From an uncultured Gammaproteobacteria bacterium (GTDB taxonomy: Bacteria; Patescibacteriota; Patescibacteriia; Patescibacteriales; GWC2-42-12): DNA of 64,000 nt. The position numbers were made by a program, and so were the translations under genes. This document shows positions 5,366 through 29,690 of the stretch, piece after piece. Position 1 is the stretch's first letter, and each line of letters opens with the position of its first letter. The notes beneath the pieces are model-generated. The model was given only the letters and a program-made list of their open reading frames with translations. It did not search any database and was not told where the DNA came from. Location of the stretch: contig CAZGKM010000002.1 of assembly GCA_964526325.1 (NCBI GenBank), forward strand, positions 14,725 through 78,724, read 5' to 3'.

Positions 5366-5406
5366 TTTGTCATTCCGGCCTCCGAGCCGGAATCCATTTC
5401 CTTATA
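5366..5406. promoter_or_regulatory. conserved leader hairpin element, copy D (TTTGTCATT-CCGGC…GCCGG-AATCCATTTCCTTAT) 8 nt upstream of tsaC start
   Basis: Seen in the sequence. It is related to the element at 9526-9566 by compensatory stem changes. Confidence 0.55.
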
Positions 5407-6128: not shown

Positions 6129-7670
6129 TTATTTTACTTTTTCTCTCTTTAATATTTTCACTGTTCCAATGTCCGCGTCAACTTCCACTAAATCACCGTC
6201 TTTCAATATTTGAGTAGCAAATTTAGTTCCAACAATACACGGTTTTTTCATTTCTCTTGAAACAATAGCTGCATGGCACAAAATACCACCTTCGTCAGTA
6301 ATAAATGCTGATGCTTTACGCATCGCCGGAACATAATCTGGGTTTGTCATCGGACAAACTAATATATCACCTTTTTTAATTTTATTTATATCTAAAAAAA
6401 ATGGTACTACACGAACAATTCCCCTAACTATCCCTAAATATGTTGGCTGACCTTTAATAATATTCGTTTCTTTTATTTTTATATCGGCAAGTAGCTGCAA
6501 ATGGTTGGAATTATAATTAATAAGCTCTATTGTGTGGTCATTTATTCTAATTAAAGAATAATCATTAATTCTTCTTTTAATAACCTTTTTGTCAATTTCC
6601 TTACCTTTAATTAACAGATTAATTTCATCTGCCGATAAATATAAAACTTCAAAAAATGATAAATTATGCTTTACTCCAATTAATTCAAAAAAGGAACGAA
6701 AATTATTACCACAAATTCCAACCGCATCCCAATTGTACATTTTAGCATTTATCATTTCTCTAATTATTTTTACTTCTTCTTTAAGATTCACGCTATGTTT
6801 TTCGGCGTCTTCAATAATATTTTTTATTACAAACTCCTTTTTTCCATTTTCCTCTTTTTGTTTTATTATTCCTTTATCATCGCACAATAATAACGTAATT
6901 AGCTTAAAATAATGATTTAGAGAATAAAAAGGCATATGCCAACACAAAGAGCCCATCCAACCGTAATAATCACGATGCTTTAATATATCATTATAGATTC
7001 CTCGATATTTTGTTTTGATAATATCATGCGGTTGCGATTTTTTAAAAAATTTAATCGCTTTTTTGTCTTTTTTAATTTTATTAACAATTCTATTAAATTC
7101 CAATAGCTCTTTGGCTAAAAATGATTTACTTTTTGGCGCTGTCAAATTTGTTAATATTTCCGTAGGATTGATTTGTTCCTTTTTATTCTTTACATACTCT
7201 TTAATTTTACTTTCCAACATTTTAGCTAGCAAAGAGTCAATCATAATGATGCTATAAGCTAACGCCATGTTGCGTTTTTGATATTGAATAAATTTATTAA
7301 AAATTATGATCTGCTTATTTCTATCATTAATTACTGATTTTTTTACTAATTCAGAAAAGGTTATTGCCTCTTTGCCGGTTTTCATTAATAACTTAATGTA
7401 TTTTGTTAAATAATTAAAACTTTCTTTTTTTATCTTCGACTTAAAATAATTATTAAAATCGTCATAATCTTTTTTCGTAAAATAAATAGTGCCGGATACC
7501 GTTAACATTTTTTTAAACCAAACAGGAAAACCTGTTTCTTTAAATGATTCTTTTTTTGTTGATTCCAATATTAACCAATTCATCAAAAAAGGCGTATTCC
7601 ATTTTCCAGCTTTTATCCAACTCGTCTCTTTAATTTTCTTAATGATTAATTTTTTATCAACTTTTATCAT
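6129..7670 (-). CDS. paralog 1: unknown N-terminal domain fused to C-terminal PEP-utilising-enzyme phosphohistidine swivel (mobile) domain
   Basis: The C-terminus GDILVCPMTNPDYVPAMRKASAFITDEGGILCHAAIVSREMKKPCIVGTKFATQILKDGDLVEVDADIGTV is a canonical PEP-utilisers swivel domain with a catalytic His in the GG(x)(T/C)SHAAI core. The roughly 400-aa N-terminal domain shares a YGWM motif with paralog 3. Confidence 0.6.
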   Translation of the reverse strand: MIKVDKKLIIKKIKETSWIKAGKWNTPFLMNWLILESTKKESFKETGFPVWFKKMLTVSGTIYFTKKDYDDFNNYFKSKIKKESFNYLTKYIKLLMKTGKEAITFSELVKKSVINDRNKQIIIFNKFIQYQKRNMALAYSIIMIDSLLAKMLESKIKEYVKNKKEQINPTEILTNLTAPKSKSFLAKELLEFNRIVNKIKKDKKAIKFFKKSQPHDIIKTKYRGIYNDILKHRDYYGWMGSLCWHMPFYSLNHYFKLITLLLCDDKGIIKQKEENGKKEFVIKNIIEDAEKHSVNLKEEVKIIREMINAKMYNWDAVGICGNNFRSFFELIGVKHNLSFFEVLYLSADEINLLIKGKEIDKKVIKRRINDYSLIRINDHTIELINYNSNHLQLLADIKIKETNIIKGQPTYLGIVRGIVRVVPFFLDINKIKKGDILVCPMTNPDYVPAMRKASAFITDEGGILCHAAIVSREMKKPCIVGTKFATQILKDGDLVEVDADIGTVKILKREKVK

Positions 7671-7674
7671 ACGA

Positions 7675-8562
7675 TTATTCTCGATGTAAAGATAAATAAA
7701 ATCTTTTTAATTCATCTATTTTATTTTGATCTAAATACATCTCACCATTCTGTTGTCTATTTGGATTATCAAATGTTACTACCAAGGGCAGCTTTTTTCC
7801 ATTTTGATCAGTTCTAATTCTAATATTAAACGTTTCGGAAGGATTAAACTCACCGCCTATTTCTTTAAAATCTTTAAAGCCGACTACTTGTTCATTATTA
7901 TTTTTTCTTACTAAGGCATACCGAAGTATAAATTCCATCATACCACCATGCGTTCCTGCCGGAATTAAAACTTTTGAATTTGATTTTAATCTTGCCGCCA
8001 TTTGTTGATAATGATCAATCAGATAGGCAAAAGAACCGGCCATTTCTCTTTTGTAATTTTCAGCTTCTGGCGTATCAAGCAAAACCATATATTCCAATAT
8101 TTTAGCTTGCGCTACTTTAGAAGCTTGCGCTTTTTCCTCGGGTGATAAATCTTTAAAATTTTCTGGTAAAAATGAATTATATACGGCTACATGATCATAT
8201 GGTTTTGGCGAAACAATATTCTCATAATTTAAAATTTTATTTGCTCGAGTATTAAATTTCTTATCGCCAGCAATTTCTTTCGCGTAAATATCTGCGGTTT
8301 CTAACGCTCTGCCCATATTCTTTTCTACTACAGGATTAGGATCTGCTTGAGAACCGATTGCTTTAACAGCGTCATATTCCTCGTTATTAATTCTACTTTT
8401 ATTAGCAGCTTTTTTGGTTTGTTCTCTGCCTAAATCGTTTAAAAATTTTCCATCTTTTTCTCCATGCCGAATTAATTTTAAATCAATAATAACGTCTGCG
8501 CCCTCTGGTTTTTTTATCATTTCGATTGAATTTTGATCCAATGATTCTTGATAATTTTTCAT
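7675..8562 (-). CDS. histidine phosphatase superfamily protein (PGAM-like, RHG motif)
   Basis: An LIRHGEKDG catalytic motif near the N-terminus and a downstream …AGTHGG… second His motif. Confidence 0.55.
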   Translation of the reverse strand: MKNYQESLDQNSIEMIKKPEGADVIIDLKLIRHGEKDGKFLNDLGREQTKKAANKSRINNEEYDAVKAIGSQADPNPVVEKNMGRALETADIYAKEIAGDKKFNTRANKILNYENIVSPKPYDHVAVYNSFLPENFKDLSPEEKAQASKVAQAKILEYMVLLDTPEAENYKREMAGSFAYLIDHYQQMAARLKSNSKVLIPAGTHGGMMEFILRYALVRKNNNEQVVGFKDFKEIGGEFNPSETFNIRIRTDQNGKKLPLVVTFDNPNRQQNGEMYLDQNKIDELKRFYLSLHRE

Positions 8563-8578
8563 GTGTTTATTTTAATAA

Positions 8579-9517
8579 TTACAATGTTGTTATCGGTCTG
8601 GATTGAGTAATATAAAATTTGCCTTTAGCCAACGCCCATTCTATATCCTGGGGCTTTTTATAATGCTTCTCTATATTAGTACAAATTTTGGCTAATTCAA
8701 TAATCTGTCTATCGTTTAGCTTTTGCTTTTTTTGTTTAGCTTTTGGCGCGAACGTATGCTTAACTCCACCACTGGTTTTTCTGATTATCATCATTTTCTG
8801 CGTAGCAATATTTATATCCATTATTGAAAAATTTTGCTTGTCAATAACATAAGCGTCCGGCGTTATTTGACCCGATACTATAGCTTCGCCTAATCCCCAG
8901 CCGGCTTCAATTATCATTTGATTTTTGTCTTGAGTAACCGGATGCACGGTAAAAGCAATACCGGAAACTTCCGACTCTACCATGTATTGCACAACTACGG
9001 CCACGCTTACCTTGGTTTTTAGCAATTTTCTTTCATAGCGATAAAAAATCGCTCGCGGCGTAAAAAGCGATGACCAGCATTTTTTAACGTTTTCTAATAA
9101 ATCTTTTTTGGTTGTATCTAAATAAGTTTCTAATTCTCCGGCCCAAGAAGCTACTGACGAATCTTCGGCTGTGGCGGACGAACGCACGGCCACGAATTTA
9201 GCTTTTAGCTTTTTAAATTCCGATAAAATTTCTTTTTTGATGTCGGCCGGTATAGCGCGATCATGAATTAAATCGCGGATAACATTAGACGCTTTATCTA
9301 CCGAATTAATGTCTTTATAATTTACTTTTTTTAATATGGCTGCGATATCAACATCTAAATCGGTTTCTTCTAAAAAACGATCAAAGGCCGAGACTAAAAC
9401 TACGAAGCCTGGCGGTACCGGCAACTTAGCACCGCTCATCTCGCCTAAACTCGCGCCCTTACCCCCGGCTAAACCTATGTCTTTATATGAAAGTTGTTTA
9501 AAATTTTTAGTATGCAT
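8579..9517 (-). CDS. standalone PPDK_N / PEP-synthase-type ATP-grasp nucleotide-binding domain protein
   Basis: 312 aa. GLAGGKGASLGEM…LPVPPGFVV…AVRSSATAEDS…QDIEWALAKGKFYITQSRPIT matches the ATP/pyruvate-phosphate-dikinase N-terminal domain. No swivel or PEP-binding domain is fused to it. Confidence 0.75.
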   Translation of the reverse strand: MHTKNFKQLSYKDIGLAGGKGASLGEMSGAKLPVPPGFVVLVSAFDRFLEETDLDVDIAAILKKVNYKDINSVDKASNVIRDLIHDRAIPADIKKEILSEFKKLKAKFVAVRSSATAEDSSVASWAGELETYLDTTKKDLLENVKKCWSSLFTPRAIFYRYERKLLKTKVSVAVVVQYMVESEVSGIAFTVHPVTQDKNQMIIEAGWGLGEAIVSGQITPDAYVIDKQNFSIMDINIATQKMMIIRKTSGGVKHTFAPKAKQKKQKLNDRQIIELAKICTNIEKHYKKPQDIEWALAKGKFYITQSRPITTL

Positions 9518-9525
9518 ATAATTCT

Positions 9526-9566
9526 TTTGTCATTGCGGACAATAACCCGCAATCCATTTCCTTATT
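9526..9566. promoter_or_regulatory. conserved leader hairpin element, copy E (TTTGTCATT-GCGG…CCGC-AATCCATTTCCTTATT) 8 nt upstream of the PPDK_N-domain gene start
   Basis: The flanks match copy D. The stem is GCGG/CCGC where D has CCGGC/GCCGG, so the changes are compensatory. Confidence 0.55.
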
Positions 9567-9574
9567 AATTAATT

Positions 9575-10627
9575 TTATTTTATTATTTTAACAATTCCTT
9601 TATTCGCGTCAACTTCCACTAAGTCACCATCGTGCAAAATTTTAGTGGCAATTTTAGTACCGATGATGCAGGGAATTTCCATTTCTCTTGATACGATTGC
9701 CGCATGACAAAGAATTCCACCCTCGTCGGTAATAATTCCTGATACTTTTGAGAGGATGGCTACCATATCAGGATGCGTCATATAAGTAACTAAAATGTCG
9801 CCTTTATTAATTTTCGAATAATCTGACTTATTTAATACCAGTTTAGCTATTCCTTGAGCGTTCCCTTTGTAGGCAACTAAACCACGAACTTCTTTTTTAT
9901 CGGCGGTAATATTTTCTTTTTCAAACTCAATCTTATCTAACACCATCTTTGCTCTACTGCCGAATAGCAATTCCGACTTATAATTTTCTAATTTCATTAC
10001 TGTAAGATTTTCTCTTTGGTCCAATAAACTATCATTAATTTCTTTGTCGCCGGATAATAGTTCGGAAAACTCTTTATTTATATATAGATACAACTTGTTT
10101 AAAGATATATTTTTTGTGTTAGATACCATCTCAAAAAAACCTAATAATTCTTTCCACGCCGAACTACTTTTTACTTCCGCGTCATCGTAAATCCGTTGCA
10201 GTATTTCAATTTCCTTTTCATTCCCTTGAGATTGTTTCAAAAAAGTCGCTAAATTTGAAGAATAAAGAATTATCCCGCGCGACAGTTTATAGCATGCTTC
10301 AAATTCTTTCCATGCGTAAAGATTATTCTCTCCGGCTAATCTTGTACTTGCTTTGTCAAGGTTATTAAAAAATTGCTTCATCTGGCTTATTATTTTTTCA
10401 ATTCCTATTCTATTTATATCATTTTTTATACTTTCGACTTTGGACGTAAAATCATCTGGTTTAATATATTGAGTAGTCATGCCATGACTATAAATCGCTA
10501 ATAAATCTTTTTGTTTAACGGTAAAAGGACGGGGTAACATATTTTTATATCCCTCAAAACGAAGAGTCCGCTCTAAAAGAGTGGATTCTCTTGTTACAAG
10601 CTTCTCCCATTGATTACCGTTTGACAT
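9575..10627 (-). CDS. paralog 2: unknown N-terminal domain plus C-terminal phosphohistidine swivel domain
   Basis: C-terminus GDILVTYMTHPDMVAILSKVSGIITDEGGILCHAAIVSREMEIPCIIGTKIATKILHDGDLVEVDANKGIV. Confidence 0.6.
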   Translation of the reverse strand: MSNGNQWEKLVTRESTLLERTLRFEGYKNMLPRPFTVKQKDLLAIYSHGMTTQYIKPDDFTSKVESIKNDINRIGIEKIISQMKQFFNNLDKASTRLAGENNLYAWKEFEACYKLSRGIILYSSNLATFLKQSQGNEKEIEILQRIYDDAEVKSSSAWKELLGFFEMVSNTKNISLNKLYLYINKEFSELLSGDKEINDSLLDQRENLTVMKLENYKSELLFGSRAKMVLDKIEFEKENITADKKEVRGLVAYKGNAQGIAKLVLNKSDYSKINKGDILVTYMTHPDMVAILSKVSGIITDEGGILCHAAIVSREMEIPCIIGTKIATKILHDGDLVEVDANKGIVKIIK

Positions 10628-10629
10628 AT

Positions 10630-11478
10630 CTATCGTAGATTATTATTAAAATTTTTTTTTGGAATGTTGAATAATTCGGTATCAATTTCACCTTCTTCGT
10701 TGAATTTCAGACGCAATCCTTCTGCGTTGCCAGCCATTTGTATTCCTTTTGGATCCATATTCAATTCGCTCGACATAGCCACCGTTACTCTGGGCGCATG
10801 ACTATTGGCAATCACTACCATGGACTCATCTCCTCTGTCGTTAATTCTTTTTGCCAGTTTTTGCAGACCGGCCTTCGTCTCTTCCATATATCGTCTAGCC
10901 TGAGAATATGTTTCTATTCCCTTGGGGATTTCTTCGTCAGGTGTCAGCATCCAAGCGATTACACCGTCGGCGGCTCCGAGACTTTTTTGATATTCAGGAT
11001 CATCTAATTTTTTTCGAAAATCTGGTGTGGAATCAGTCACTGTACCGATACGGCTTTTTACCCCCGGACCGGCCTTGCGATTTCTTTGTTCGATATCAGC
11101 TGAATTATAGGCAGGGTGAAGAATATATATATTCTGATCGGGGACACCATGCTGGATCAACGCTTCTTTTTCAATTTGCGCCTGTTCCATCGTTCGAGGA
11201 GTCTCGGAGTCATATATACGGAACTTTACGGTCTTGAGTATTTCTTCATTTTGTTGTTTGTTACTACCTACTGGCACAAATTCTTGCACTTGAGTAATTA
11301 TTTTTTCTATAGCTTTCTCTACTTGCCTTTTACCCTTCTCTGTCAATTCCCTACTGACATCACTTTTATTGCTCGTTGTTTCTCCATGTCGTATCAAATA
11401 AACAACTAACGTTAGCGAAATCCGCTCTTTTTTCTTTTCCAGGCCTAATGATTCAATCGCATATTTTTCCCCCGCCAT
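10630..11478 (-). CDS. histidine phosphatase superfamily protein (PGAM-like)
   Basis: VVYLIRHGETTSN catalytic motif plus a downstream …IANSHAPR… second His motif. Confidence 0.55.
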   Translation of the reverse strand: MAGEKYAIESLGLEKKKERISLTLVVYLIRHGETTSNKSDVSRELTEKGKRQVEKAIEKIITQVQEFVPVGSNKQQNEEILKTVKFRIYDSETPRTMEQAQIEKEALIQHGVPDQNIYILHPAYNSADIEQRNRKAGPGVKSRIGTVTDSTPDFRKKLDDPEYQKSLGAADGVIAWMLTPDEEIPKGIETYSQARRYMEETKAGLQKLAKRINDRGDESMVVIANSHAPRVTVAMSSELNMDPKGIQMAGNAEGLRLKFNEEGEIDTELFNIPKKNFNNNLR

Positions 11479-11487
11479 AGTTTTTAT

Positions 11488-12990
11488 TTAAATTATTTTA
11501 TTAATAATGCCTCTGCTCATATCCATTTCGATGTGGTCACCGTCTTTAAAAACAGATGTTGCGATTTTCGTCCCGACGATACATGGTTTTAAAAATTCAC
11601 GAGAAAGTAACGCGGCATGGCTCGTTATCCCGCCTTCATCCGTTACCACGCCACGCGCTTTTTTAATCAAAAAAACAGCGTCGGGCGTAGTCATAGTCGT
11701 TATGATAATATCTTCTTTTTTTACATCTCTCTTCTTGTTTTTAATTAAAATTATTTTTGCACGACCTCTTATAATTTTTTCGTCATTTGGGCGGCTGGCT
11801 ACGGTACCTGCCACAAAATTTAAATTCTTGGTATTTTTATGCGTAAAAATTCCAAATTTTTGGAATCTTTTGTGCGCATCATTTCCGCTCATAAATATTG
11901 GCTTTTTGCCAAAAATTCCCTCATAAAGTAAATATGAGCGACTTCTAATCTTATATAATTTAGCTATCTTTTGCGGGGTGTCAATAAATGATTCAATTTC
12001 CCCTATATCAAAATACTTCAGCGCCATATATTCTACTGATATTTTTTTGGCAAAAGCTTCAAGAAACTGTCTAAAAACCCAATGCAACTTAGAGGTAACA
12101 TATTTGCGGTCATCCTGAAGAATATACATACCTTGAAATGCCTCTACTTGCCTTATGACATCATCCGTCAAGCTATGCCGTTTTATCAAATACTTAATCT
12201 TTTTATTTTTTTCGTCTTCATATTTCTGAAGAGTATAAATTACTTTTTCAATTTCTTTTTTTGTTTTACTCCCCACATTTTCTTCAATTATTTTTCTATA
12301 ATGCCGGGCATCCCAATATTCGTTTGCGTCATAAGAAACCGGCATCCAGCCGTATATTTTCGATAACATTTGCGAAATATTTTCAATATCAAATTTATTT
12401 TTTTTATTAAGTTTCTTCAATGTGGCTATACATATATCCAACTCTTCTTTTAACGCCCAGGATTTTTTTATCGGCCCGATTAAATCATTGATAACTTTTT
12501 GATCGGTTATATATTTTTTAAGCGTTGTTTCCAGGTCATTTTTTATATATTCGGATCCGACAAAATATATAGGCGGACTAACAACATTGTAATCGATCCA
12601 CCTTGACTTGATTCGCTTATAAAGTTTTATAAAGCCTGCTGTATTTTTTGGTAACGTTTTATTTTCAAGCTCATTTATTAACTCAAGAAGTTCGATTTCG
12701 GCTTTTTTATGTTTTTGTTGGAGCTGCTTAAAAAATTGCTTTTTTTTCTTTATTTTTTTAACGATAAAATTCCCGAATCTATCCCAGTCAGCTTGATTAT
12801 ATACGGCAAAAACATCTCCGGAAGGTGTAAAAAAATTAACATAGAATTGAATACCTACTCCATAGGTATCAGCAACTCGCTTGTCAGTAATTGCGCTCAC
12901 ATTCCAGGAAGCCGGGATGGGAAGATATTTTCTCGATCTCTTTAAATGGTAATGATTAGGCAAATTTTGTTTTTTTTCATTTATTAGCAT
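11488..12990 (-). CDS. paralog 3: large N-terminal domain plus C-terminal phosphohistidine swivel domain
   Basis: C-terminus IIITTMTTPDAVFLIKKARGVVTDEGGITSHAALLSREFLKPCIVGTKIATSVFKDGDHIEMD. The N-terminal domain shares a YGWM-containing region with paralog 1. Confidence 0.6.
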   Translation of the reverse strand: MLINEKKQNLPNHYHLKRSRKYLPIPASWNVSAITDKRVADTYGVGIQFYVNFFTPSGDVFAVYNQADWDRFGNFIVKKIKKKKQFFKQLQQKHKKAEIELLELINELENKTLPKNTAGFIKLYKRIKSRWIDYNVVSPPIYFVGSEYIKNDLETTLKKYITDQKVINDLIGPIKKSWALKEELDICIATLKKLNKKNKFDIENISQMLSKIYGWMPVSYDANEYWDARHYRKIIEENVGSKTKKEIEKVIYTLQKYEDEKNKKIKYLIKRHSLTDDVIRQVEAFQGMYILQDDRKYVTSKLHWVFRQFLEAFAKKISVEYMALKYFDIGEIESFIDTPQKIAKLYKIRSRSYLLYEGIFGKKPIFMSGNDAHKRFQKFGIFTHKNTKNLNFVAGTVASRPNDEKIIRGRAKIILIKNKKRDVKKEDIIITTMTTPDAVFLIKKARGVVTDEGGITSHAALLSREFLKPCIVGTKIATSVFKDGDHIEMDMSRGIINKII

Positions 12991-13083: not shown

Positions 13084-13872
13084 TTATTGTGCTTCCTCTG
13101 TTTTTAATCTAGCCTTTATCATTACATAAACGGGAGTTTCTTCATATTCTTCCCAAAAATCTTGACCTAATTCTTTTTTGCCTTCTCCAGAAATTTCGCT
13201 ATTAATCCACTCTATTTCAAAACCCGCTTCCTTAAAAATTTTTTCGTAAGTTTCTTTGGTCCAGTAATAATTAGTGAATTCTCCCAGCTTTTTATTTTTA
13301 AAATCTTTAAGCTCAATTTTTACTTCACTGCCTTCCTCGCCTGTTGTTGGCGTCATTTTTACGCCATAAGAATCCGAGCCTTTCATTCTTTCCGGGTTGG
13401 CGATGGAAGCATAAAAAAATCCGCCGCTTTCTAAATTATTTTTAACGCCAGAGATTATTTTCCTCATCATTTCTTCGGAATCGGAATAATGAAGCGCCAT
13501 AGCTCCGGTAATAACATCAAACTTTCCTTTTATTGGTAGATTAGCTATATCACCAATGGCATATTCTATCGACCTATCTGAATTTATTCTTTTTTCTTCC
13601 ACCGCCGCTTTACTTATTAACTTCTCTGAAATATCAACGCCAACTACTTCTTCCGCACCCAAATCTCTTAACAATCTGCTGGAAACTCCCTCGCCGCAAG
13701 CCAAATCCAAGGCTCTTTTTCCTTTTAAATCGCCTAGCAATTTAACCCAAGTATAATCAGAGGTATATTTTCTTAATTCCCTTTTAGTCGCCTGCTCGTA
13801 CCCATCGACTATTTTACTGTATTCTTGTTTGACTTTTTCAGTCGACGGCTTAATTATTTCTATATTTTCCAT
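13084..13872 (-). CDS. class I SAM-dependent methyltransferase
   Basis: Motif I ALDLACGEGVSS and …VVGVDIS…, with a typical Methyltransf_11/25 layout. Confidence 0.7.
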   Translation of the reverse strand: MENIEIIKPSTEKVKQEYSKIVDGYEQATKRELRKYTSDYTWVKLLGDLKGKRALDLACGEGVSSRLLRDLGAEEVVGVDISEKLISKAAVEEKRINSDRSIEYAIGDIANLPIKGKFDVITGAMALHYSDSEEMMRKIISGVKNNLESGGFFYASIANPERMKGSDSYGVKMTPTTGEEGSEVKIELKDFKNKKLGEFTNYYWTKETYEKIFKEAGFEIEWINSEISGEGKKELGQDFWEEYEETPVYVMIKARLKTEEAQ

Positions 13873-13883
13873 AAATTATTAAT

Positions 13884-14963
13884 TTACTTGATTATTTTTA
13901 CCACTCCTTTATCCGCATCCACTTCCACTAAATCACCATTATGCAAAACTTTAGTAGCGATTTTTGTGCCAATAACGCATGGCTTCTTTAATTCCCGTGC
14001 AACTATGGCTGCATGAGAAAGCAACCCTCCGCCGTCAGTTACAATGGCCGCTGCTTTTTTCATTAATAATAAATAATTAGGATTAGTCATACCGGTTACC
14101 AGTATTTCTCCGCTCTTAATGGTTGCACCATAATAATCTAAAATTACTTTGCATCTTCCTTTAACTTTCCCCTTAAACGCCGACGCTCCTTTTAATATCT
14201 TTTTTTCAGAATCGTTAAGCCAAATTTTTTCAATTCTATCCGTATCTATGGCCGATAAAAAATAAATTTTCTTCTTAGTAAAATAGACCGAACTTCTTTT
14301 ATGTCTTAAAAATAATTGCCTTTCATCCGGTATCTTTACATTTTCAATAAAATTCAATAATTCATCCTGAGTCATCATTAAAATATTTTCTTTAGCATAT
14401 CCAGTCTGCTCAGAAATTAATTTAGCAACCTTGGCAAATATTATCGCGTTATTCTGATAAAATGACTCGGAATATTTTCGTGCATTTGCCAATATTTTTT
14501 TAGTTTTTTTATCCAATTCATCGTACATAACATCAAACACGACTTTAGTTGCAACATTATATGCTCCAAATATTTCATATAAAGGATTAAACAATTTTAA
14601 TTTTTTTATAAAATTATTTGGGGATTGACTAATTACTGACATTATCTCGCCAGCAACTTGTTTAAAATCTTTAGCCATCTCACCCGCATAATTATTTTTT
14701 TTTAATTTTTCACCCACATGTTTACCTAAGGCTTGATATTCATTTTCTGGCAATCTGATCGTAGCAATACCTTTTTTATAATCAATAAAAAAACTAGAAA
14801 AAGACAAACCGAATATTCTTTCTAAACCATTAAAATAAACCCTATAGGAATTATAAACTTCAAGCAAAGGAAATGATCCGCTCCAATCAACGTGCCAATC
14901 AATGTCATGTATTTTTTTTATTAACTTATTATTTTTTAATTTTGATTTTCTTCCTATTATCAT
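13884..14963 (-). CDS. paralog 4: unknown N-terminal domain plus C-terminal phosphohistidine swivel domain
   Basis: C-terminus GEILVTGMTNPNYLLLMKKAAAIVTDGGGLLSHAAIVARELKKPCVIGTKIATKVLHNGDLVEVDADKGVVKIIK. Confidence 0.6.
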   Translation of the reverse strand: MIIGRKSKLKNNKLIKKIHDIDWHVDWSGSFPLLEVYNSYRVYFNGLERIFGLSFSSFFIDYKKGIATIRLPENEYQALGKHVGEKLKKNNYAGEMAKDFKQVAGEIMSVISQSPNNFIKKLKLFNPLYEIFGAYNVATKVVFDVMYDELDKKTKKILANARKYSESFYQNNAIIFAKVAKLISEQTGYAKENILMMTQDELLNFIENVKIPDERQLFLRHKRSSVYFTKKKIYFLSAIDTDRIEKIWLNDSEKKILKGASAFKGKVKGRCKVILDYYGATIKSGEILVTGMTNPNYLLLMKKAAAIVTDGGGLLSHAAIVARELKKPCVIGTKIATKVLHNGDLVEVDADKGVVKIIK

Positions 14964-15997
14964 AATTTTAATATTTTAACTACCCCCTTATCTGCATCCA
15001 CCTCCACTAAATCACCGTCATGCAAAACTTTAGTGGCGATTTTTGTGCCGATGACACAAGGCTTCTTAAGTTCGCGCGCCACAATAGCCGCATGACATAA
15101 CATGCCGCCCTCATTAGTTATAATCGCCTTAGACTTTACTATCGCGGGTAGAAAATCTGGCGAGGTCATTTCGGCTACAAGAATTTCATTATTTTTTAAA
15201 TTACCTATATCTTTTTTCTCAATTACCAATCTAACTTTACCCCGAACTGGCGATATTTTTAATACACCTACGCCTTTTAAGTTAATAATTTTATTTGATT
15301 TTATTTCTTTTTCCAATTTAATCTTTTTTCTGACTAATTCTTTCATAAGATCTTTTTCTAAAAAAATCTTACCGTTAAACAAGCCAAAGCCTTTTAATCT
15401 ATTTTTTATCTCTCTCAATTTTTTCAGTGGTAAGCTATGCTTGTCGATTAAAACCGCTTCTTCGGGAGTTACAACATATTTATATCGTGAAAAGTCGGGA
15501 TAATTTTTCTGCCAATATGAGAAAAATACTTCATCCATTTTATCGGAAAATTTTTCTCCCCCTTGCCGTAATACAATAGCTTTTTCTTTTAAATCTTCTT
15601 TAACGCCCTTGAGGTCGGGAATATAAAATATGATGGACATAGCCGACCACCAGCGGATGACACAATTATAATATTTTTTAAATTCTTTAATATTTTTTAT
15701 CTGCCGACCGGTCGTTATAAACGGCCTTAAAAATTTCCATTCCTTATCCAGAGTAGCACTTAATTTATCCAAAAATTTTTTATCACTCTGTGTTTTAGTT
15801 TTTATTTTTTTAAAAATAATTTTAAACTCATCGTTATTATGCCAAATATAAGTACGATTGCCATTTTTTTTTAAAAAAAGCGAGTCTTTTAATTTATAAT
15901 TAAGCCACTTACGAAAACTAAGTTGATTGGACTTATAAAACATGAAAAAATAAAAAAGTGAACGTTCGCGCGAGAAATGTAAAGTTAATTTTGTCAT
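14960..15997 (-). CDS. paralog 5: unknown N-terminal domain plus C-terminal phosphohistidine swivel domain
   Basis: C-terminus NEILVAEMTSPDFLPAIVKSKAIITNEGGMLCHAAIVARELKKPCVIGTKIATKVLHDGDLVEVDADKGVVKIL. It overlaps paralog 4 by 4 nt, indicating operonic coupling. Confidence 0.6.
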   Translation of the reverse strand: MTKLTLHFSRERSLFYFFMFYKSNQLSFRKWLNYKLKDSLFLKKNGNRTYIWHNNDEFKIIFKKIKTKTQSDKKFLDKLSATLDKEWKFLRPFITTGRQIKNIKEFKKYYNCVIRWWSAMSIIFYIPDLKGVKEDLKEKAIVLRQGGEKFSDKMDEVFFSYWQKNYPDFSRYKYVVTPEEAVLIDKHSLPLKKLREIKNRLKGFGLFNGKIFLEKDLMKELVRKKIKLEKEIKSNKIINLKGVGVLKISPVRGKVRLVIEKKDIGNLKNNEILVAEMTSPDFLPAIVKSKAIITNEGGMLCHAAIVARELKKPCVIGTKIATKVLHDGDLVEVDADKGVVKILKL

Positions 15998-24315: not shown

Positions 24316-27300
24316 TTATAATATTGTTAAATTAATTTCCTCCGACTTATCGCTTTCGTTAGCCTTAAGGTCTAAAGATGAAACCGCGAAATAATATGTA
24401 ACTCCGGCGCTTAAATTATTTATGGTAATTTCGCATTGTCCGGTTGCAGCCGAGCACTTATTTTTTTCAAGATTAACCGATGCGCCTAAAGAACCGCTCT
24501 CGGCGCCGAAATAAATTTTATAAATTGCCGTATCGTCCGTATTGGCTTGCCAAGTAATTACCGCTTTGCCGGCGCCGGCCGTACCGGCTAAATTTTGCGG
24601 AATCTGCGGCGGCCAAACATCCGCCGGAATAAAATTAGTTTCATTGGAATAGCTGCTCTCGGCGCCGCTTTTGTATTTAGCCGTAACCGCGAAATAATAT
24701 TTAACGCCATTGGTTAGATTGCTTATAACAACCGGGTTGGCGATTGTACCAGGATCGGCAACCGAAATCGACTGGCTATAGCCGCCTGATTTAGTGCCGT
24801 AATAAACCAAATATTTATCGAAAATTTGTCCGGTGGGTACAGAAATAGCCTGCCAAGTCAAACCGGCTTTACCGCCTTGCTTAATCGTATCATTAGTCGT
24901 AGTGGCTAAATTTGATGCGATATCCGGCGTATCTTCTCTGAAAAAATAAAACTCTTTTATAATATTCTGCTCGGCTGAAGAACCGCGGATTACGGCCTTG
25001 TCACTTAAAATAGGCGGGAAATCGTCGGCCGTTCCGGCTTCCCCGGTATCACGGCAATAATATAATTCAAAATTAGTGCCCGAACAACCACCGGCTACGG
25101 TAGTGCAATTACTTGACGCATCGCGCCACGGCTCCCAACTGCCATCATCTTTAAACGGCGGCCAAGGATTAGCGCATAAAAAGACATAAACATCCGCAGC
25201 ATTTTCTTTAAATTGACCAACGGTTGATATCTTGCCAACCGCATCCTGCGTAATGGTAGTTTTGACATGAAGCAAGGTATTAGCTTCCTTGACGTTTTGA
25301 GCAACCAGCGTTTGAACAGGATTGTCATCAAGAGCATTTTCTCCATTTATAAACTTAGCTACCGACTTATCGTCTATCAACCAATCCCAGCGCCAGTTAT
25401 AAACATTTTCAATCGGCATGACCGGCTGAGTGGGCGAAAAATATGCCGTAGCGCGGAAAACTTTATCAACATCTCTTATGGTATCATAAGCGGCATTAGC
25501 CGAATCGTCATCGGCCGGATCGTTCACTACGGTATTAAATAAATAACCCGACGGATTAATGGCGACATAATTAACAAAACAAACTCCTTTGTTATCCGCC
25601 GTTTCCGCTTTAGTGGTGAACGACCAAATTTTTCCTTTAAAATTTACGCCGTTAAAAATTTCTTCATCGGTAGTTTTTAAGCCTATGCCCGACTGGCTTA
25701 AAACTCCGTTGTTCATAGCGTCAGAAACATCGGAGTCGCCTTTAATTATAACATAATATTTTCGATTTGCCTCTAAAATTTTCTGCAGCCTAAATTCCAA
25801 TACGGTTGTTTCATTGGCTTGAATATAACCCTTGACCATCCCCGGAACAGCGCAAAAATTTCCTGCCATAGCTTGGGCTTGATTAATAAAAAATTTATTG
25901 AATATCGGTAGGCCGGCCAACCAGTTGGTTAATTTAACAAACAGTCCCGGCTTATAAATCGCGGTTAAATATTTAGTATTGGCCGGGCATTGGTCAGAGC
26001 CATATTCGCCGGCCACGATAATATTACCGTTAAAAGTGTCGGTCCTCATGGGCTGATCAAAAGTAACTTTTACCAGGCTGTTGCGGCAAACATCAACGGC
26101 TCCGGCGGCCGGTACGGTTTCAATCACGTTCGGCCTGGCATGGCAGCAGGTATCGTTGCCGCAACCAACAGAATTAGCATCTCCGCATTCGCTGTCTTGA
26201 CTGCAACCGCAGCAAAGCCCGCGCTTATCGCCGCTGCAAGGCGCTTGGTTGGGTTTGCAAATTAAGGAGGAGTTCAAGCTTGCGCAGCTATCTAGCGCCG
26301 CGAAAGGATCGCAACAGCAAGTACCGCAATTTGAAGGCACCGGACCGGTACCATCCTCGTTTAAACAAGCAAAGCCGACGCATTTATTGATATCGCAACT
26401 TTGCGTTGTCATGGCGCTCTCAAAGCAAGTATTGCCGAATTGCGCGGCAGGCTTACATTTATTATCACATTCGGCTAAAGTAGCGTAACTCGGCGAACTG
26501 GAGGAAGCGACGGCTATATTGGAGCAGCTGCCGGCGCCGCATTCATAATAAGCGCAATAATTATAGGCCGGAAGGCCGGTGGCATATGGCGCTTCCCCGC
26601 CGCGGCAAGCATTTTTATTTTTAGCATCAACACAGCAAGTACCCACGCCTAAACCGCTGCATGTAGCCGCGCTGCTAATCTGAGCGCAGTCTTGGCAAAC
26701 GCCGCTCGGATTAGCGCTGTCAATCAAGCAAAATTTACCGCTGGTACCGCTACAATTGCATGCTTCGTTATGTTCTATTTGAGTCGTGCCAACGCCGGCG
26801 CAGCCGGAACAACGGCCGTAAGTATTGGTATTGGCGGTTATATCACTGCCACATTTACCTTCGCATTTTAAAGGCGAGCAGCAATCTTCGCCGTCATGGC
26901 CGATGCGGCAGCAGCATTCGCAGCTGGCACTGTCGCTTTTTGTGCATTTATTATCACTGCCGCAAATTGAACCGATAGGACAAAGGCTTTGTTCAACCGC
27001 GCAGATACCGACAATCGCGCCGGACGTTTCCTTTATGCATTTAAAGCCGGTATCGCAAGCCGAACAGGTTGTATTATTTTCCATGCAGCGTCCGCCGAAA
27101 ATACTCGTCCACCCGCTGGGACAAGAGGTGCTAATCGTTATAATCCATCTATTTTCTCCGCCATAAGCCAGACAACTGGCCGTGGAAGTTGCGGCAATAT
27201 CGCTAAGCGTATAATTAACTACTTTAGGCAGACCGCAAGTTTGATTCTTTTTAGCGCATTTATCTACATTTAATTTATATTCGCACAAATCGGTTTTACA

Positions 27301-29661
27301 AACATTGAAATTATTACAGCTATAATCACAGGTGCCGGTTTCACTAACTTCCCCGCCGCCGTAAGTTGAGCATTTGCCGGGCGAGTTTGGACAAAAATAA
27401 CTGCTTGAGCATTGGCTTAAGCCATAATTTGAGCAGGCCTGCCCATCGGAACATTCGGTTTTTCCGTCACTGTCCAAATCTTTACAGCCGCCGGTGGAAC
27501 AGCATTGCAGATCGCCGTCGCATTGATCCGGTTTATTGACGGGACAGCTATCACATTGGCCGGTAAGATGGTTGCATTGATTGGGAGCGCAACAGTTGAA
27601 GGTAATGGCACTGCCCTGCTGGACATTGGGTATATCGCATTTTTCTTGATTAACCGAACATTCACCTGACTTAGTGGAAAATGTCCAGCCAAAACCGCAG
27701 CCTCCTGGCGAACCCTGAGCGCAAGTCCCGGTTGCGCGGCAGATGCCTGACCAATAAGTGCCGCCGCCGCAACATTCTTCTCCCAACTCGCATTCGGAGC
27801 TGGAAGAACATTTGCCTACGCGAAAAGGCAAAGGATTGCTGATATATCCTTGGCTATCAATTATTCTGAACGGACCGCTGATTGAATCCACAGGCACATT
27901 ATTATCAACTTTTTGATCACCCCAGCTTCGTATTGAAGCTTCCTTATTATTAAAATATTGGGCGCGGCCGCTTCCCTGATTAACGCCGAATCTTTCGCCA
28001 TTTGCGGTTACCGGCCAGCCAACCGGACCGTTATTCGGATTTAACAGACAAAGGCCCGGAGTAGGCGTCTTGTTATTGATCGTAAAGTTGGCCGGCAAGC
28101 TGGTTTTATCATAAGAGTTGGTAACTTCAACTTTATAATCGCCCAGATTATTTACCTTTGGCACTTTAACAACAATATAAGTATCATGCCACCAATTATT
28201 GCGGCAGGCCTCGGGAAAATCAATATCGGCGTTGATTTTTGTATTCGGATCAGCCGGCCAATAAAATTTTACCGAACTTTTTTGCGCGTTGTAAATTTTA
28301 AAATTACGGCCGTAAATAGTTATATACTGGCCGGGCGGACCGTTATCCGGCTCGATATAGTCAATTGCCGGATTAGTATCAATATTATTAATCACCGTAA
28401 AAACAAGATCATTGGAATTGACATTATTCGTTTGAACAAACACCGAATTCCTGCCGTCTTGAATATTGGGTACGGTAGCGTCAACAGAAGTATTGGTCCA
28501 ATTGGCAATATTATTAGCTTCAATGGCGTTAGCGCTATTGCCGAATAAAACCGAATGAGGAGAAAGATTAAAGGCCGTGCCCTGGACATTAAAGTCATCG
28601 TCCAAACCGCCTCTGGACGGGTCAATCTGGCAGACTCCCGGACGCTTAATATTGTTTACCAAAAAATCATTAATCCGCGCGCCGCGGTTATTATCGGTCG
28701 TATCGTAATAATTTTTACTGTCGATTACTTTAATCGGACCGCTAACGGCTCCGTTAGGCACAGCGACTATAATCTGATTATCCTGCCAAAAACTAGTGCA
28801 GAGCGGATTAACTTCGTTCGGGAAAGTCGCAATTTTATCGTCGCTTGTATTATTGGGGTCGCCCATAAAAACTACTTGGCCGGTGGTTGTGCCGAAATAT
28901 CTGCCGCCTATGGTAATAAAATTTCCCACAGCGCCATTAGGCGTACTTGAAGCATCGATCGGGCTTACCCAGGCGATTAAAGGCGTTTTAATACAAGTAC
29001 AATTATCGTTAGACGAACAAACTAAATTATCCGCGCAATCAACCGCTTGGCAGCCGGCCAGATCGGTATCGGCGTCGCAACTTTGGCCGTCTGACGGCTG
29101 AGTTGATTTTTGGCAGGTACAGGTAGAACTAACGCAATCTAGACCGGACGCGCAGTCGCCGTTCGCGCATTGAGTATCTTGTAAATCAACCAAGCAAGGA
29201 TCGCCTTCTCCGGGCAAACCTCCGCCGCCCGGAGGTACGGTGCCTCCGCCGCCCGGAGGTACGGTGCCTCCGCCGCCGGTAGCATCTAGCAAACTGTTTA
29301 AAACAAAGCTGGCGATAGCGAATGAAGCCAAACAAATCAATAAGCCGATAACAGCGCCGATTAACACTTTTTTGGCTTTTTCAACTTTATCCGCCTCGCC
29401 TTCAGCCGTCATCCAAAGCCAGCCGGCATACATTATTAAGCCCACGGCGATAATTCCTAAAAAGCCCAATATTATTCTTATTATTCTGGCCGCGATAATT
29501 CTCGGATCGCTGGCCGCGCTTAAGCCCGTGCCTTCAGCGTAGTTTAAGCCAATATCAGGACCGGTAGCGGCCAAAACAAAATTAGCCACAGCAAAAACGG
29601 CTATTGCTAAAAAAATTAATAATAATAATTTCTTGATTACTTTATTCATGAGTGAAAACAA
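24316..29661 (-). CDS. giant (1781 aa) cysteine-rich surface protein with VirB2/TrbC-like N-terminal double-TM anchor and C-terminal FN3 domains
   Basis: Signal-like leader, the conserved ATGPDIGLNYAEGTGLS segment, two TM helices flanking a charged loop, and a (GGGGTVPP)x2 linker. A cysteine-rich region of about 1000 aa with EGF/CxxC-like spacing follows, then Ig-like segments and two C-terminal FN3-like domains (…VKYYFAVTAKY… and …VTYYFAVSSLD…). Confidence 0.7.
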   Translation of the reverse strand: MFSLMNKVIKKLLLLIFLAIAVFAVANFVLAATGPDIGLNYAEGTGLSAASDPRIIAARIIRIILGFLGIIAVGLIMYAGWLWMTAEGEADKVEKAKKVLIGAVIGLLICLASFAIASFVLNSLLDATGGGGTVPPGGGGTVPPGGGGLPGEGDPCLVDLQDTQCANGDCASGLDCVSSTCTCQKSTQPSDGQSCDADTDLAGCQAVDCADNLVCSSNDNCTCIKTPLIAWVSPIDASSTPNGAVGNFITIGGRYFGTTTGQVVFMGDPNNTSDDKIATFPNEVNPLCTSFWQDNQIIVAVPNGAVSGPIKVIDSKNYYDTTDNNRGARINDFLVNNIKRPGVCQIDPSRGGLDDDFNVQGTAFNLSPHSVLFGNSANAIEANNIANWTNTSVDATVPNIQDGRNSVFVQTNNVNSNDLVFTVINNIDTNPAIDYIEPDNGPPGQYITIYGRNFKIYNAQKSSVKFYWPADPNTKINADIDFPEACRNNWWHDTYIVVKVPKVNNLGDYKVEVTNSYDKTSLPANFTINNKTPTPGLCLLNPNNGPVGWPVTANGERFGVNQGSGRAQYFNNKEASIRSWGDQKVDNNVPVDSISGPFRIIDSQGYISNPLPFRVGKCSSSSECELGEECCGGGTYWSGICRATGTCAQGSPGGCGFGWTFSTKSGECSVNQEKCDIPNVQQGSAITFNCCAPNQCNHLTGQCDSCPVNKPDQCDGDLQCCSTGGCKDLDSDGKTECSDGQACSNYGLSQCSSSYFCPNSPGKCSTYGGGEVSETGTCDYSCNNFNVCKTDLCEYKLNVDKCAKKNQTCGLPKVVNYTLSDIAATSTASCLAYGGENRWIITISTSCPSGWTSIFGGRCMENNTTCSACDTGFKCIKETSGAIVGICAVEQSLCPIGSICGSDNKCTKSDSASCECCCRIGHDGEDCCSPLKCEGKCGSDITANTNTYGRCSGCAGVGTTQIEHNEACNCSGTSGKFCLIDSANPSGVCQDCAQISSAATCSGLGVGTCCVDAKNKNACRGGEAPYATGLPAYNYCAYYECGAGSCSNIAVASSSSPSYATLAECDNKCKPAAQFGNTCFESAMTTQSCDINKCVGFACLNEDGTGPVPSNCGTCCCDPFAALDSCASLNSSLICKPNQAPCSGDKRGLCCGCSQDSECGDANSVGCGNDTCCHARPNVIETVPAAGAVDVCRNSLVKVTFDQPMRTDTFNGNIIVAGEYGSDQCPANTKYLTAIYKPGLFVKLTNWLAGLPIFNKFFINQAQAMAGNFCAVPGMVKGYIQANETTVLEFRLQKILEANRKYYVIIKGDSDVSDAMNNGVLSQSGIGLKTTDEEIFNGVNFKGKIWSFTTKAETADNKGVCFVNYVAINPSGYLFNTVVNDPADDDSANAAYDTIRDVDKVFRATAYFSPTQPVMPIENVYNWRWDWLIDDKSVAKFINGENALDDNPVQTLVAQNVKEANTLLHVKTTITQDAVGKISTVGQFKENAADVYVFLCANPWPPFKDDGSWEPWRDASSNCTTVAGGCSGTNFELYYCRDTGEAGTADDFPPILSDKAVIRGSSAEQNIIKEFYFFREDTPDIASNLATTTNDTIKQGGKAGLTWQAISVPTGQIFDKYLVYYGTKSGGYSQSISVADPGTIANPVVISNLTNGVKYYFAVTAKYKSGAESSYSNETNFIPADVWPPQIPQNLAGTAGAGKAVITWQANTDDTAIYKIYFGAESGSLGASVNLEKNKCSAATGQCEITINNLSAGVTYYFAVSSLDLKANESDKSEEINLTIL
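29223..29270. repeat. 24-nt perfect tandem duplication (ccgccgcccggaggtacggtgcct x2), in-frame in the giant gene, encoding the Gly/Pro linker
   Basis: The direct tandem repeat is seen in the sequence. It translates (minus strand) to GGGGTVPPGGGGTVPP. Confidence 0.8.
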
Positions 29662-29690
29662 ATTTTAATTTTTAATTTTTAAATAATTTT

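Follow-up and report, generated by a model that had tools for sequence, protein, structure and literature searches.

We analyzed a window of 64,000 nucleotides (nt) from the Patescibacteriota contig CAZGKM010000002.1 (assembly GCA_964526325.1, positions 14,725 to 78,724 of the forward strand), and in particular two of its genes, hereafter HP-A and HP-B, whose products carry the RHG motif of histidine phosphatases. The interval 7675-11478 of the window is made of four minus-strand genes, encoding HP-A, a protein with a PPDK_N domain, a swivel protein of 350 amino acids (aa) and HP-B. They are part of a co-directional cluster of about 9.9 kb, running on the minus strand from 15997 down to 6129, which is transcribed in the order swivel-345, swivel-359, S-adenosylmethionine (SAM) methyltransferase, swivel-500, HP-B, swivel-350, PPDK_N, HP-A and swivel-513. 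Gaps between the genes of the cluster range from -4 to 93 nt, and those around both HP genes measure 2-16 nt. An initial annotation of this DNA had described two open reading frames (ORFs) of 295 and 282 aa, with LIRHGE(K/T) motifs, embedded among swivel-domain genes. Both ORFs were found exactly so on the minus strand, and the surrounding cluster indeed encodes five PF00391 (swivel) proteins in addition to the PPDK_N protein. The genes are listed here in order of transcription; the N-domain clusters are groups of N-terminal carrier domains, considered further below.

14960-15997, minus strand: swivel-345 (N-domain cluster c10), first gene of the cluster; PF00391 E 9e-26; 4-nt overlap with the next gene.
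13884-14963, minus strand: swivel-359 (N-domain cluster c4); PF00391 E 9.4e-25; motif GGLLSHAAIVARE.
13084-13872, minus strand: SAM-dependent methyltransferase of 262 aa; Methyltransf_31/25/11, E 1e-13 to 1e-15.
11488-12990, minus strand: swivel-500 (N-domain cluster c5); PF00391 E 6.1e-21.
10630-11478, minus strand: HP-B, 282 aa; RHG at 30-32, R95, H227; histidine-phosphatase superfamily.
9575-10627, minus strand: swivel-350 (N-domain cluster c3); PF00391 E 2e-25; 2 nt downstream of HP-B.
8579-9517, minus strand: stand-alone PPDK_N ATP-grasp (nucleotide-binding) protein, 312 aa; PF01326 E 1.5e-99.
7675-8562, minus strand: HP-A, 295 aa; RHG at 32-34, R85, H205; divergent histidine-phosphatase superfamily.
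6129-7670, minus strand: swivel-513 (N-domain cluster c0); PF00391 E 4.7e-26, C-terminal; motif GGILCHAAIVSRE; starts 4 nt past HP-A.

The PPDK_N protein covers positions 3-311 of the 328 positions of the PF01326 profile and aligns to the N-terminal ~315 residues of the models for phosphoenolpyruvate (PEP) synthase, rifampin phosphotransferase (RPH) and PigC. The carriers, in turn, match the last 110-250 residues of RPH/PigC/PRK06241-type models. Their swivel domains (PF00391, E 6e-21 to 5e-26) lie at the C-termini, are about 105 aa long and highly alike, and all five possess the catalytic-His motif GGxxxHAA[IL], whereas no significant similarity links their N-terminal parts of 240-400 residues. 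Only 50-150 residues ahead of the swivel domain align to RPH-like/PRK06241 models; in swivel-500 the aligned part spans residues 245-497 and corresponds to the C-terminal third of these models. The N-regions matched neither PEP-utilizers_C nor any other Pfam domain, and matches of the carriers to PDB sequences were confined to the swivel domain. Regulation of the PDRP/PSRP type was considered and rejected, the regulatory Thr at position -2 from the catalytic His being absent from four of the five carriers.

In the enzyme class of PEP synthase, pyruvate phosphate dikinase (PPDK) and RPH, the ATP-grasp domain phosphorylates the swivel His, which passes the phosphoryl group to an acceptor. Natural fusions occur in other genomes, in which PPDK_N is joined to one (L003, 799 aa), two (L024, 1110 aa) or three (L030, 1649 aa) X-swivel modules. 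These fusions lend indirect support to the predicted activity by which one ATP-grasp protein would charge several carriers in trans. In the multi-module fusions (L024:1710-5042 and L030:2997-7946) the modules, each a variable domain plus a swivel domain, follow one another consecutively; HP-A is encoded directly downstream of the fusion in L030 and two genes downstream in L024.

HP-A contains the sequence LIRHGEK, starting at residue 30, and the second-His motif PAGTH205GG. A match to PF00300 had been proposed as the refuting check for both proteins, and HP-A does not pass it: neither the single sequence nor a 24-sequence profile matched any Pfam (E <= 1), NCBIfam or PDB sequence entry, and HP-A as an ordinary PhoE or dPGM was rejected, as sequence and profile searches gave no relevant match. 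HP-A nevertheless belongs to a compact family of about 146 homologue clusters, roughly 290-300 aa in length, nearly all annotated as hypothetical and none with a precomputed Pfam domain. The named homologues are all from Patescibacteria (candidate phyla radiation, CPR), while most members are unnamed metagenome proteins. In an alignment of 107 members R32, H33, G34, H205 and R269 are invariant, and R85 (in the sequence GRALETA), E88 and E173 are conserved in at least 90%. Two homologues, P0037 (480 aa) and P0042 (446 aa), have C-terminal extensions of ~150-185 aa without Pfam match, which may be run-ons of the gene call or true fusions, and another HP-family member, P0114, also has an unannotated C-terminal extension.

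An AlphaFold2 model of HP-A, computed from the family alignment, reached a predicted local distance difference test score (pLDDT) of 93.3 and a predicted TM-score of 0.89, and places the RHG triad (R32-H33-G34) right after the strand formed by residues 25-32. Foldseek compared this model with the PDB and returned 57 matches at E <= 1e-3, the best 50 of which all belong to the histidine-phosphatase superfamily. PGAM5 led the matches (E 6e-6), accompanied by TIGAR, acid phosphatases, GpgP and BPGM/dPGM. The TM-scores were just 0.32-0.55, and HP-A is therefore a very divergent member of the superfamily. Its assignment is based on the conserved catalytic residues, on the high-confidence model with its fold match and on profile-profile homology to HP-B, as described below. 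For the acidic proton donor of HP-A there are two candidates: E166 (in TPEA, variable), which hhalign places at the position of the GE(S/T) motif, and E173, conserved in at least 90%.

HP-B contains LIRHGET, starting at residue 28, and the second-His motif ANSH227AP. Here PF00300 did match, marginally (E 2.2e-5, 24.6 bits for a gathering cut-off of 21.7, residues 26-60 alone), and 23 of 25 relatives also match it, the best with E 4.8e-14. An exhaustive HMMER search of 1.84 billion proteins retrieved 33 representatives of the family. In an alignment of 25 members R30, H31 and R95 are invariant, G32 is present in most (Ala in two) and H227 is kept in 22, being replaced by Asn in three distant members (P0141, P0145 and P0147); HP-B of the window and its close relatives keep all four catalytic residues. 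The family profile matched the SixA-like structure 3f2i (E 4e-4), YKR043C and PGAM5 in the PDB. Moreover, the G-V/I-E-T sequence of HP-B aligns with the GE(S/T) motif of YKR043C, which carries the acidic proton donor; YKR043C is a sugar bisphosphatase. The AlphaFold2 model of HP-B, built from 3 sequences, had a pLDDT of 49 and was unusable, thus the fold match concerns HP-A only.

These results place both HP-A and HP-B in the histidine-phosphatase superfamily, as very divergent members whose Arg-His-Arg-His core is intact. The family claimed for them at the outset thus stands at the superfamily level, HP-A being placed there through structure and profile-profile comparison only and HP-B with a marginal Pfam score. 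The conservation expected of the catalytic His and Arg residues was observed in both families, as was that of the second His, invariant in the 107 HP-A sequences and present in 22 of 25 HP-B sequences.

The two proteins had also been called paralogs. BLASTP aligned them over a short segment round the RHG motif (15/41 identities, E 0.004), so they are not close; yet hhalign of HP-A against an enlarged HP-B profile gave a probability of 95.9% (E 6.4e-9, 208 columns), and brought the RHG motif, the second Arg and His and a C-terminal GGE/NAEG motif into alignment. An earlier comparison with small HP-A and HP-B alignments had given just 53%, and the homology became clear after the HP-B family was enlarged by the exhaustive representative search. 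As judged from sequence comparison, HP-A and HP-B are remote relatives, two deeply diverged subfamilies of one clade and not recent paralogs, and the annotated members of this clade are all from Patescibacteria. One protein of 670 aa (P0146; L039:10001-12013, on a Magasanikbacteria-type contig) joins an HP-A-like and an HP-B-like half in tandem, the latter with Asn in place of the second His. Its cluster encodes PPDK_N, at least six swivel proteins, a third His_Phos_1 protein (298 aa) and a HAD hydrolase, with the HP genes on the strand opposite to the carriers. As such a natural fusion exists, HP-A and HP-B may work as a pair.

We collected 39 related loci through exact-protein look-ups and degenerate-pattern scans, all of them seeded on HP genes, and annotated them with hidden Markov models built from the window proteins. 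Of the non-redundant HP-A loci, 23 were informative, having enough flanking DNA, and in all of them HP-A has a swivel or PPDK_N neighbor on the same strand at no more than 100 nt, usually 3-20 nt upstream. HP-B adjoins a swivel or PPDK_N gene in 5 of 6 loci, a c3-type swivel gene comes after it in all three non-redundant close HP-B loci, and the distant member P0141 (L035) lies between a swivel gene and PPDK_N. Each cluster contains 1-3 HP genes (several have two or three), one PPDK_N gene (two in two loci) and 1-10 swivel genes, the largest array having at least 10 carriers with one PPDK_N (L006). HP-A and HP-B are part of the core of a modular "split dikinase" cluster, in which they share the orientation of their neighbors and are separated from them by short gaps. 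None of the informative related loci departs from the placement among carrier genes, which gives good grounds for linking the HP proteins functionally to the dikinase-type system.

The neighbors of HP-A are diverse, including stand-alone swivel genes from at least 10 N-domain clusters as well as full-length PPDK_N-X-swivel fusions. Among 59 N-domains we counted 23 clusters, and 3.7% of 1,711 pairs are detectably similar. Identity between loci is 48% for HP-A, 50% for the swivel domain and 60% for PPDK_N. The swivel domains found beside HP-A form no distinct lineage (permutation p 0.34); with this result and the many clusters involved, a pairing of HP-A with one particular N-domain cluster or swivel lineage was rejected.

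Accessory inserts vary among the clusters: the methyltransferase in the window, and elsewhere NDP-sugar genes, CYTH, a MatE transporter, riboflavin/FMN genes or a HAD hydrolase. The methyltransferase is itself accessory, being missing from most related loci, where other inserts occur instead. In the related clusters L036, L004, L037 and L038 the genes in or abutting the arrays repeatedly belong to nucleotide or cofactor chemistry, in three sets: NTP_transferase, RmlD-type epimerases, CYTH, NUDIX and HIT; NAD synthase with a CTP_transf_like gene; and flavokinase, riboflavin synthase and lumazine synthase. Alongside these inserts, we noted that the window cluster is followed downstream by a PNP-family phosphorylase gene. 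The embedded nucleotide and cofactor genes may hint at acceptors.

We also observed some unusual members. The contig of L013 (JWKQ01000003.1, titled "archaeon GW2011_AR5", DPANN) encodes PPDK_N, a swivel protein and an HP-A 56% identical to ours, together with a sortase gene, which may reflect mis-binning or inter-domain transfer. An HP-A-like gene in a swivel cluster (L004:12618-13387) is split into ORFs of 88 aa and 171 aa, suggesting a frameshift or a pseudogene. Another swivel cluster contains an HP-A-like gene (L020:6591-8120) for a protein of 509 aa, in which RHA replaces RHG and a long unannotated stretch extends the C-terminus.

By considering the conserved catalytic core and the conserved neighborhood, HP-A and HP-B are very probably active enzymes of the histidine-phosphatase fold whose function is tied to the swivel system. 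As for their substrate, the initial annotation had left the choice between the carriers and phosphorylated products; we tentatively favor the phosphohistidine of the swivel carriers, by analogy with SixA, at a likelihood somewhat short of even. The single PPDK_N protein would use ATP to phosphorylate the conserved His of each of the five swivel proteins, and the unrelated N-domains of these carriers would then steer the phosphoryl group to different acceptors; these first two steps are modeled on what PEP synthase, PPDK and RPH are known to do. The target of HP-A and HP-B would be the swivel-domain phosphohistidine, the element common to all partners. The RHG histidine (H33 in HP-A, H31 in HP-B) would take the phosphoryl group from the carrier His~P, and the second His and two Arg would stabilize it on the HP protein before its release as phosphate. 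The outcome would be a reset or throttle of the relay, avoiding a build-up of charged carriers when acceptors are absent.

Several facts favor a phosphatase of the carriers. HP-A is conserved like the swivel domain and PPDK_N and unlike the hypervariable N-domains, its swivel neighbors form no lineage of their own, and HP and PPDK_N genes stay few whatever the number of carriers in a cluster. This argues for HP proteins as part of the conserved core and not of the chemistry of one carrier. Moreover, the feature shared by all HP neighbors is the phosphohistidine domain, and a precedent exists in SixA. This enzyme, of the same superfamily and with the same RHG catalytic His, removes phosphate from the phosphohistidine of NPr, the carrier of the nitrogen-related phosphotransferase system, PTS(Ntr), whose charging enzyme itself has a PEP-utilizer swivel domain (PMC7948535), and from that of Ndk (PMC12934123); the HPt domain of ArcB is also a substrate. 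The best NCBIfam and PDB sequence matches of HP-B, TIGR00249 and 3f2i, are likewise of the SixA type.

Several points weigh against a carrier phosphatase, and the substrate assignment, tentative as it is, draws on gene-neighborhood logic. A phosphohistidine phosphatase beside a self-sufficient RPH-like enzyme of full length (as in L003, L026, L027 and L030) would simply make a wasteful ATPase of that enzyme, unless regulated. No fusion of HP with swivel or PPDK_N domains was found among ~180 family members. SixA is compact (~160 aa) and free of cap or insertions, whereas HP-A and HP-B are much larger (295 and 282 aa) and have long insertions; in the HP-A model a helical insertion of ~65 residues (124-189) occupies the site where the superfamily cap usually encloses small-molecule substrates. 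The SixA model TIGR00249 is the best NCBIfam model for HP-B, with E 1e-5 and 25.4 bits over residues 26-58 (the RHG region) alone, far under its cut-off of 74.5, and does not match HP-A, so that neither protein qualifies as a SixA equivalog. In addition, the small-molecule genes of related clusters (NDP-sugar, riboflavin/FMN, NAD, HAD hydrolase) fit small-molecule products equally well. To our knowledge, no SixA is encoded inside a dikinase operon.

If the carriers are the substrate, enzymatic erasure of phosphohistidine, described so far for SixA and a few eukaryotic enzymes, would be extended to dikinase-type carriers. A new modular phosphotransfer network would also be defined, and unexplored CPR physiology would become accessible experimentally through three to four small soluble proteins.

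A second explanation is, in our view, nearly as likely as the first: the swivel proteins would phosphorylate small molecules or polymers, and HP-A and HP-B would hydrolyze the resulting phosphomonoesters. The hydrolysis could follow once another reaction has intervened, or erase a reversible modification, or, in a kinase/phosphatase pair resembling PFK-2/FBPase-2, tune the amount of a phosphorylated metabolite. Small phosphoesters are established substrates of most characterized superfamily members (Rigden 2008, via PMC7948535), the helical insertion of HP-A stands at the usual place of the substrate cap, and its structural neighbors include TIGAR, bisphosphoglycerate mutase and glucosyl-3-phosphoglycerate phosphatase. 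The match of the HP-B profile to the sugar bisphosphatase YKR043C points in the same direction, as do the genes of small-molecule metabolism in related clusters, one of them a HAD hydrolase.

Known split dikinases also fit a product phosphatase. In phenylphosphate synthase (Thauera proteins 1 and 2) and in the acetovanillone phosphotransferase AcvAB the ATP-grasp part is apart from the swivel-His/substrate subunit, as here, and their clusters encode dedicated HAD phosphatases acting after them, the delta subunit of phenylphosphate carboxylase and AcvF, respectively (bioRxiv 10.1101/2022.04.28.489975). The initial annotation had described the pairing of a dikinase with dedicated phosphatases as unusual, which is overstated in view of these systems and of SixA acting on NPr. 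The likeness has limits, as phenylphosphate synthase and AcvAB have one swivel subunit, a phosphatase of the HAD fold and a coupled carboxylase, whereas the window cluster encodes 5 swivel proteins, and other clusters up to 10, whose N-domains are unrelated; the partners here have the histidine-phosphatase fold, and a carboxylase is absent. The window swivel regions also match PRK08296 models, which probably represent a phenylphosphate-synthase-like family.

Similar logic is seen in PFK-2/FBPase-2 and TIGAR, where the product of a kinase is the substrate of a histidine-phosphatase-fold domain coupled to it, TIGAR being among the top structural matches of HP-A. PFK-2/FBPase-2, however, has a non-dikinase kinase fold, is a fusion and not an operon, and acts on a single defined metabolite, thus the likeness is in logic only. 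In plants, the swivel-His dikinases GWD and PWD phosphorylate a polymer from which the phosphoglucan phosphatases SEX4 and LSF2 remove the phosphate. Unlike HP-A and HP-B, SEX4 and LSF2 are dual-specificity, Cys-based enzymes encoded by unlinked eukaryotic genes; a Pfam scan detected no carbohydrate-binding module in the window proteins.

The architecture of the clusters speaks against a phosphatase of products: one or two highly conserved enzymes would have to cope with the products of as many as ten carriers, among which the specificity domains bear no relation to one another (3.7% of pairs similar), and the adjacency of HP-A does not depend on the type of N-domain. Moreover, two-gene modules made of a fused dikinase and HP-A would run a futile cycle, no intervening enzyme being encoded. 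Should products be the substrate after all, the clusters would constitute a multi-substrate kinase/phosphatase battery, relevant to the salvage or modification of host-derived compounds by symbionts.

A third explanation, which we consider improbable, shares its first half-reaction with the phosphohistidine phosphatase. Here the RHG His would be charged by the swivel His~P but hand the phosphoryl group to a substrate instead of water, or the HP proteins would isomerize products in the manner of dPGM, and they would thereby form the terminal catalytic module of a His-to-His relay. True mutases (dPGM, BPGM) exist in the superfamily and are found among the fold matches of HP-A, and such an activity would explain one conserved HP protein with many carriers without any futile cycle. 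Yet the carriers keep large N-domains, partly alignable to the RPH-like substrate-binding region, suggesting that they bind acceptors themselves, and no sequence feature tells a transferase from a hydrolase. No histidine-phosphatase-fold enzyme is known to us that receives its phosphoryl group from a PEP-utilizer swivel domain.

The HP proteins could also be non-catalytic subunits, pseudo-enzymes or sensors binding phosphorylated carriers or products without turnover. The replacement of the second His by Asn in the HP-B relatives P0141, P0145 and P0147 and in the HP-B half of P0146 would suit this role, but R32, H33, G34 and H205 are invariant and R85 at least 90% conserved in 107 HP-A sequences, and HP-B of the window and its close relatives keep all four residues, which makes it very improbable. 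Finally, chance placement of unrelated housekeeping phosphatases, conceivable because related clusters do gain unrelated inserts (methyltransferase, epimerases, riboflavin genes, MatE transporter), is effectively ruled out by the 23 of 23 informative HP-A loci, from very different Patescibacteria lineages and with gaps of a few nt, by the distant HP-B relatives and the tandem fusion, also in swivel clusters, and by a canonical dPGM encoded separately in at least one such genome (L001, PF00300 E 1.5e-30).

Other systems close to that of the window are RPH, PigC/RedH and the "PEP synthase-like" PRK06241 proteins, which follow the same logic, with an ATP-grasp domain, a substrate-binding domain and a C-terminal swivel His (PMC4844700). 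Fused, full-length RPH-like versions adjoin HP-A in other genomes. In the window, unlike in RPH, the ATP-grasp protein is encoded by a separate gene common to five carriers, and the N-domains are mostly not alignable to the rifampin-binding domain. As far as we know, RPH needs no phosphatase partner.

Split dikinases, dikinase-plus-phosphatase pairings and the histidine-phosphatase superfamily are already known. We found in the literature no description of CPR swivel arrays with phosphatases; apparently new are multi-carrier arrays that share one ATP-grasp protein and are accompanied by a dedicated histidine-phosphatase-fold clade, conserved across Patescibacteria. HP-A is outside current family models and library profiles mostly miss the HP clade. 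HP-A merits a family model of its own, as its ~146 members are now almost all hypothetical proteins.

A wider interpretation, which we regard as rather unlikely, is that Patescibacteria possess a hitherto unrecognized modular histidine phosphorelay, with the ATP-grasp protein as "charger", up to 10 interchangeable carriers bearing hypervariable target-recognition domains, and the HP clade contacting the carrier His~P, either as a reset phosphatase or as a His-to-His terminal acceptor/transferase. If true, two-component systems and the PTS would be joined by a third type of His-based phosphotransfer network. The genomes of Patescibacteria (CPR) are as a rule small, and by assuming ~1 Mb for this lineage, a cluster of ~10 kb would take up about 1% of the genome. 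Organisms with such small genomes nevertheless keep a cluster of ~10-15 kb, in which many carriers, their specificity domains unrelated, appear to depend on a single ATP-binding protein, and which in the HP-seeded loci is accompanied by a histidine-phosphatase-fold family.

The remainder of the window contains no further swivel, PPDK_N or HP genes. Among window ORFs of at least 60 aa (26,048 residues), LIRHGE[KT] and RHGE are confined to HP-A and HP-B, and RHG occurs once elsewhere. The cluster is flanked by housekeeping genes, upstream by CvpA, methionyl-tRNA synthetase and an RsmI-like gene, and downstream by the PNP-family phosphorylase, Sua5, TatD and an ATP-synthase subunit. PADLOC found no anti-phage defence match and Rfam no match in the window, and promoter and terminator scans gave scores not above those of shuffled controls. 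An intergenic hairpin element, AAGGAAATGG-ATT[G/C]CGG-loop-CCG[C/G]AAT-GACAAA, occurs twice, at 5370-5403 and 9530-9563, both on the minus strand, with stems that differ between the two copies by a compensatory G/C swap. One copy precedes PPDK_N and the other Sua5, the distance from the end of the element to the start codon being 12-15 nt. The gapped pattern of the element had 0 matches in shuffled sequence and, among the fetched loci, none outside contigs of the same organism; the hairpin could serve in regulation or processing.

Other features of the window are unrelated to the cluster. A GC-rich island on the minus strand (24316-31457; 0.42-0.50 for a background of ~0.35) encodes a 1781-aa protein with TIG/fn3/Big_5 repeats and a 588-aa T4SS-pilin/Big_5 protein, both likely surface or pilus proteins. 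In addition, we found a RelA/SpoT-family (p)ppGpp synthetase/hydrolase of 488 aa (31508-32974, plus strand) and a type IIG restriction-modification enzyme, Eco57I/MmeI-like, of 848 aa (36184-38730, minus strand).

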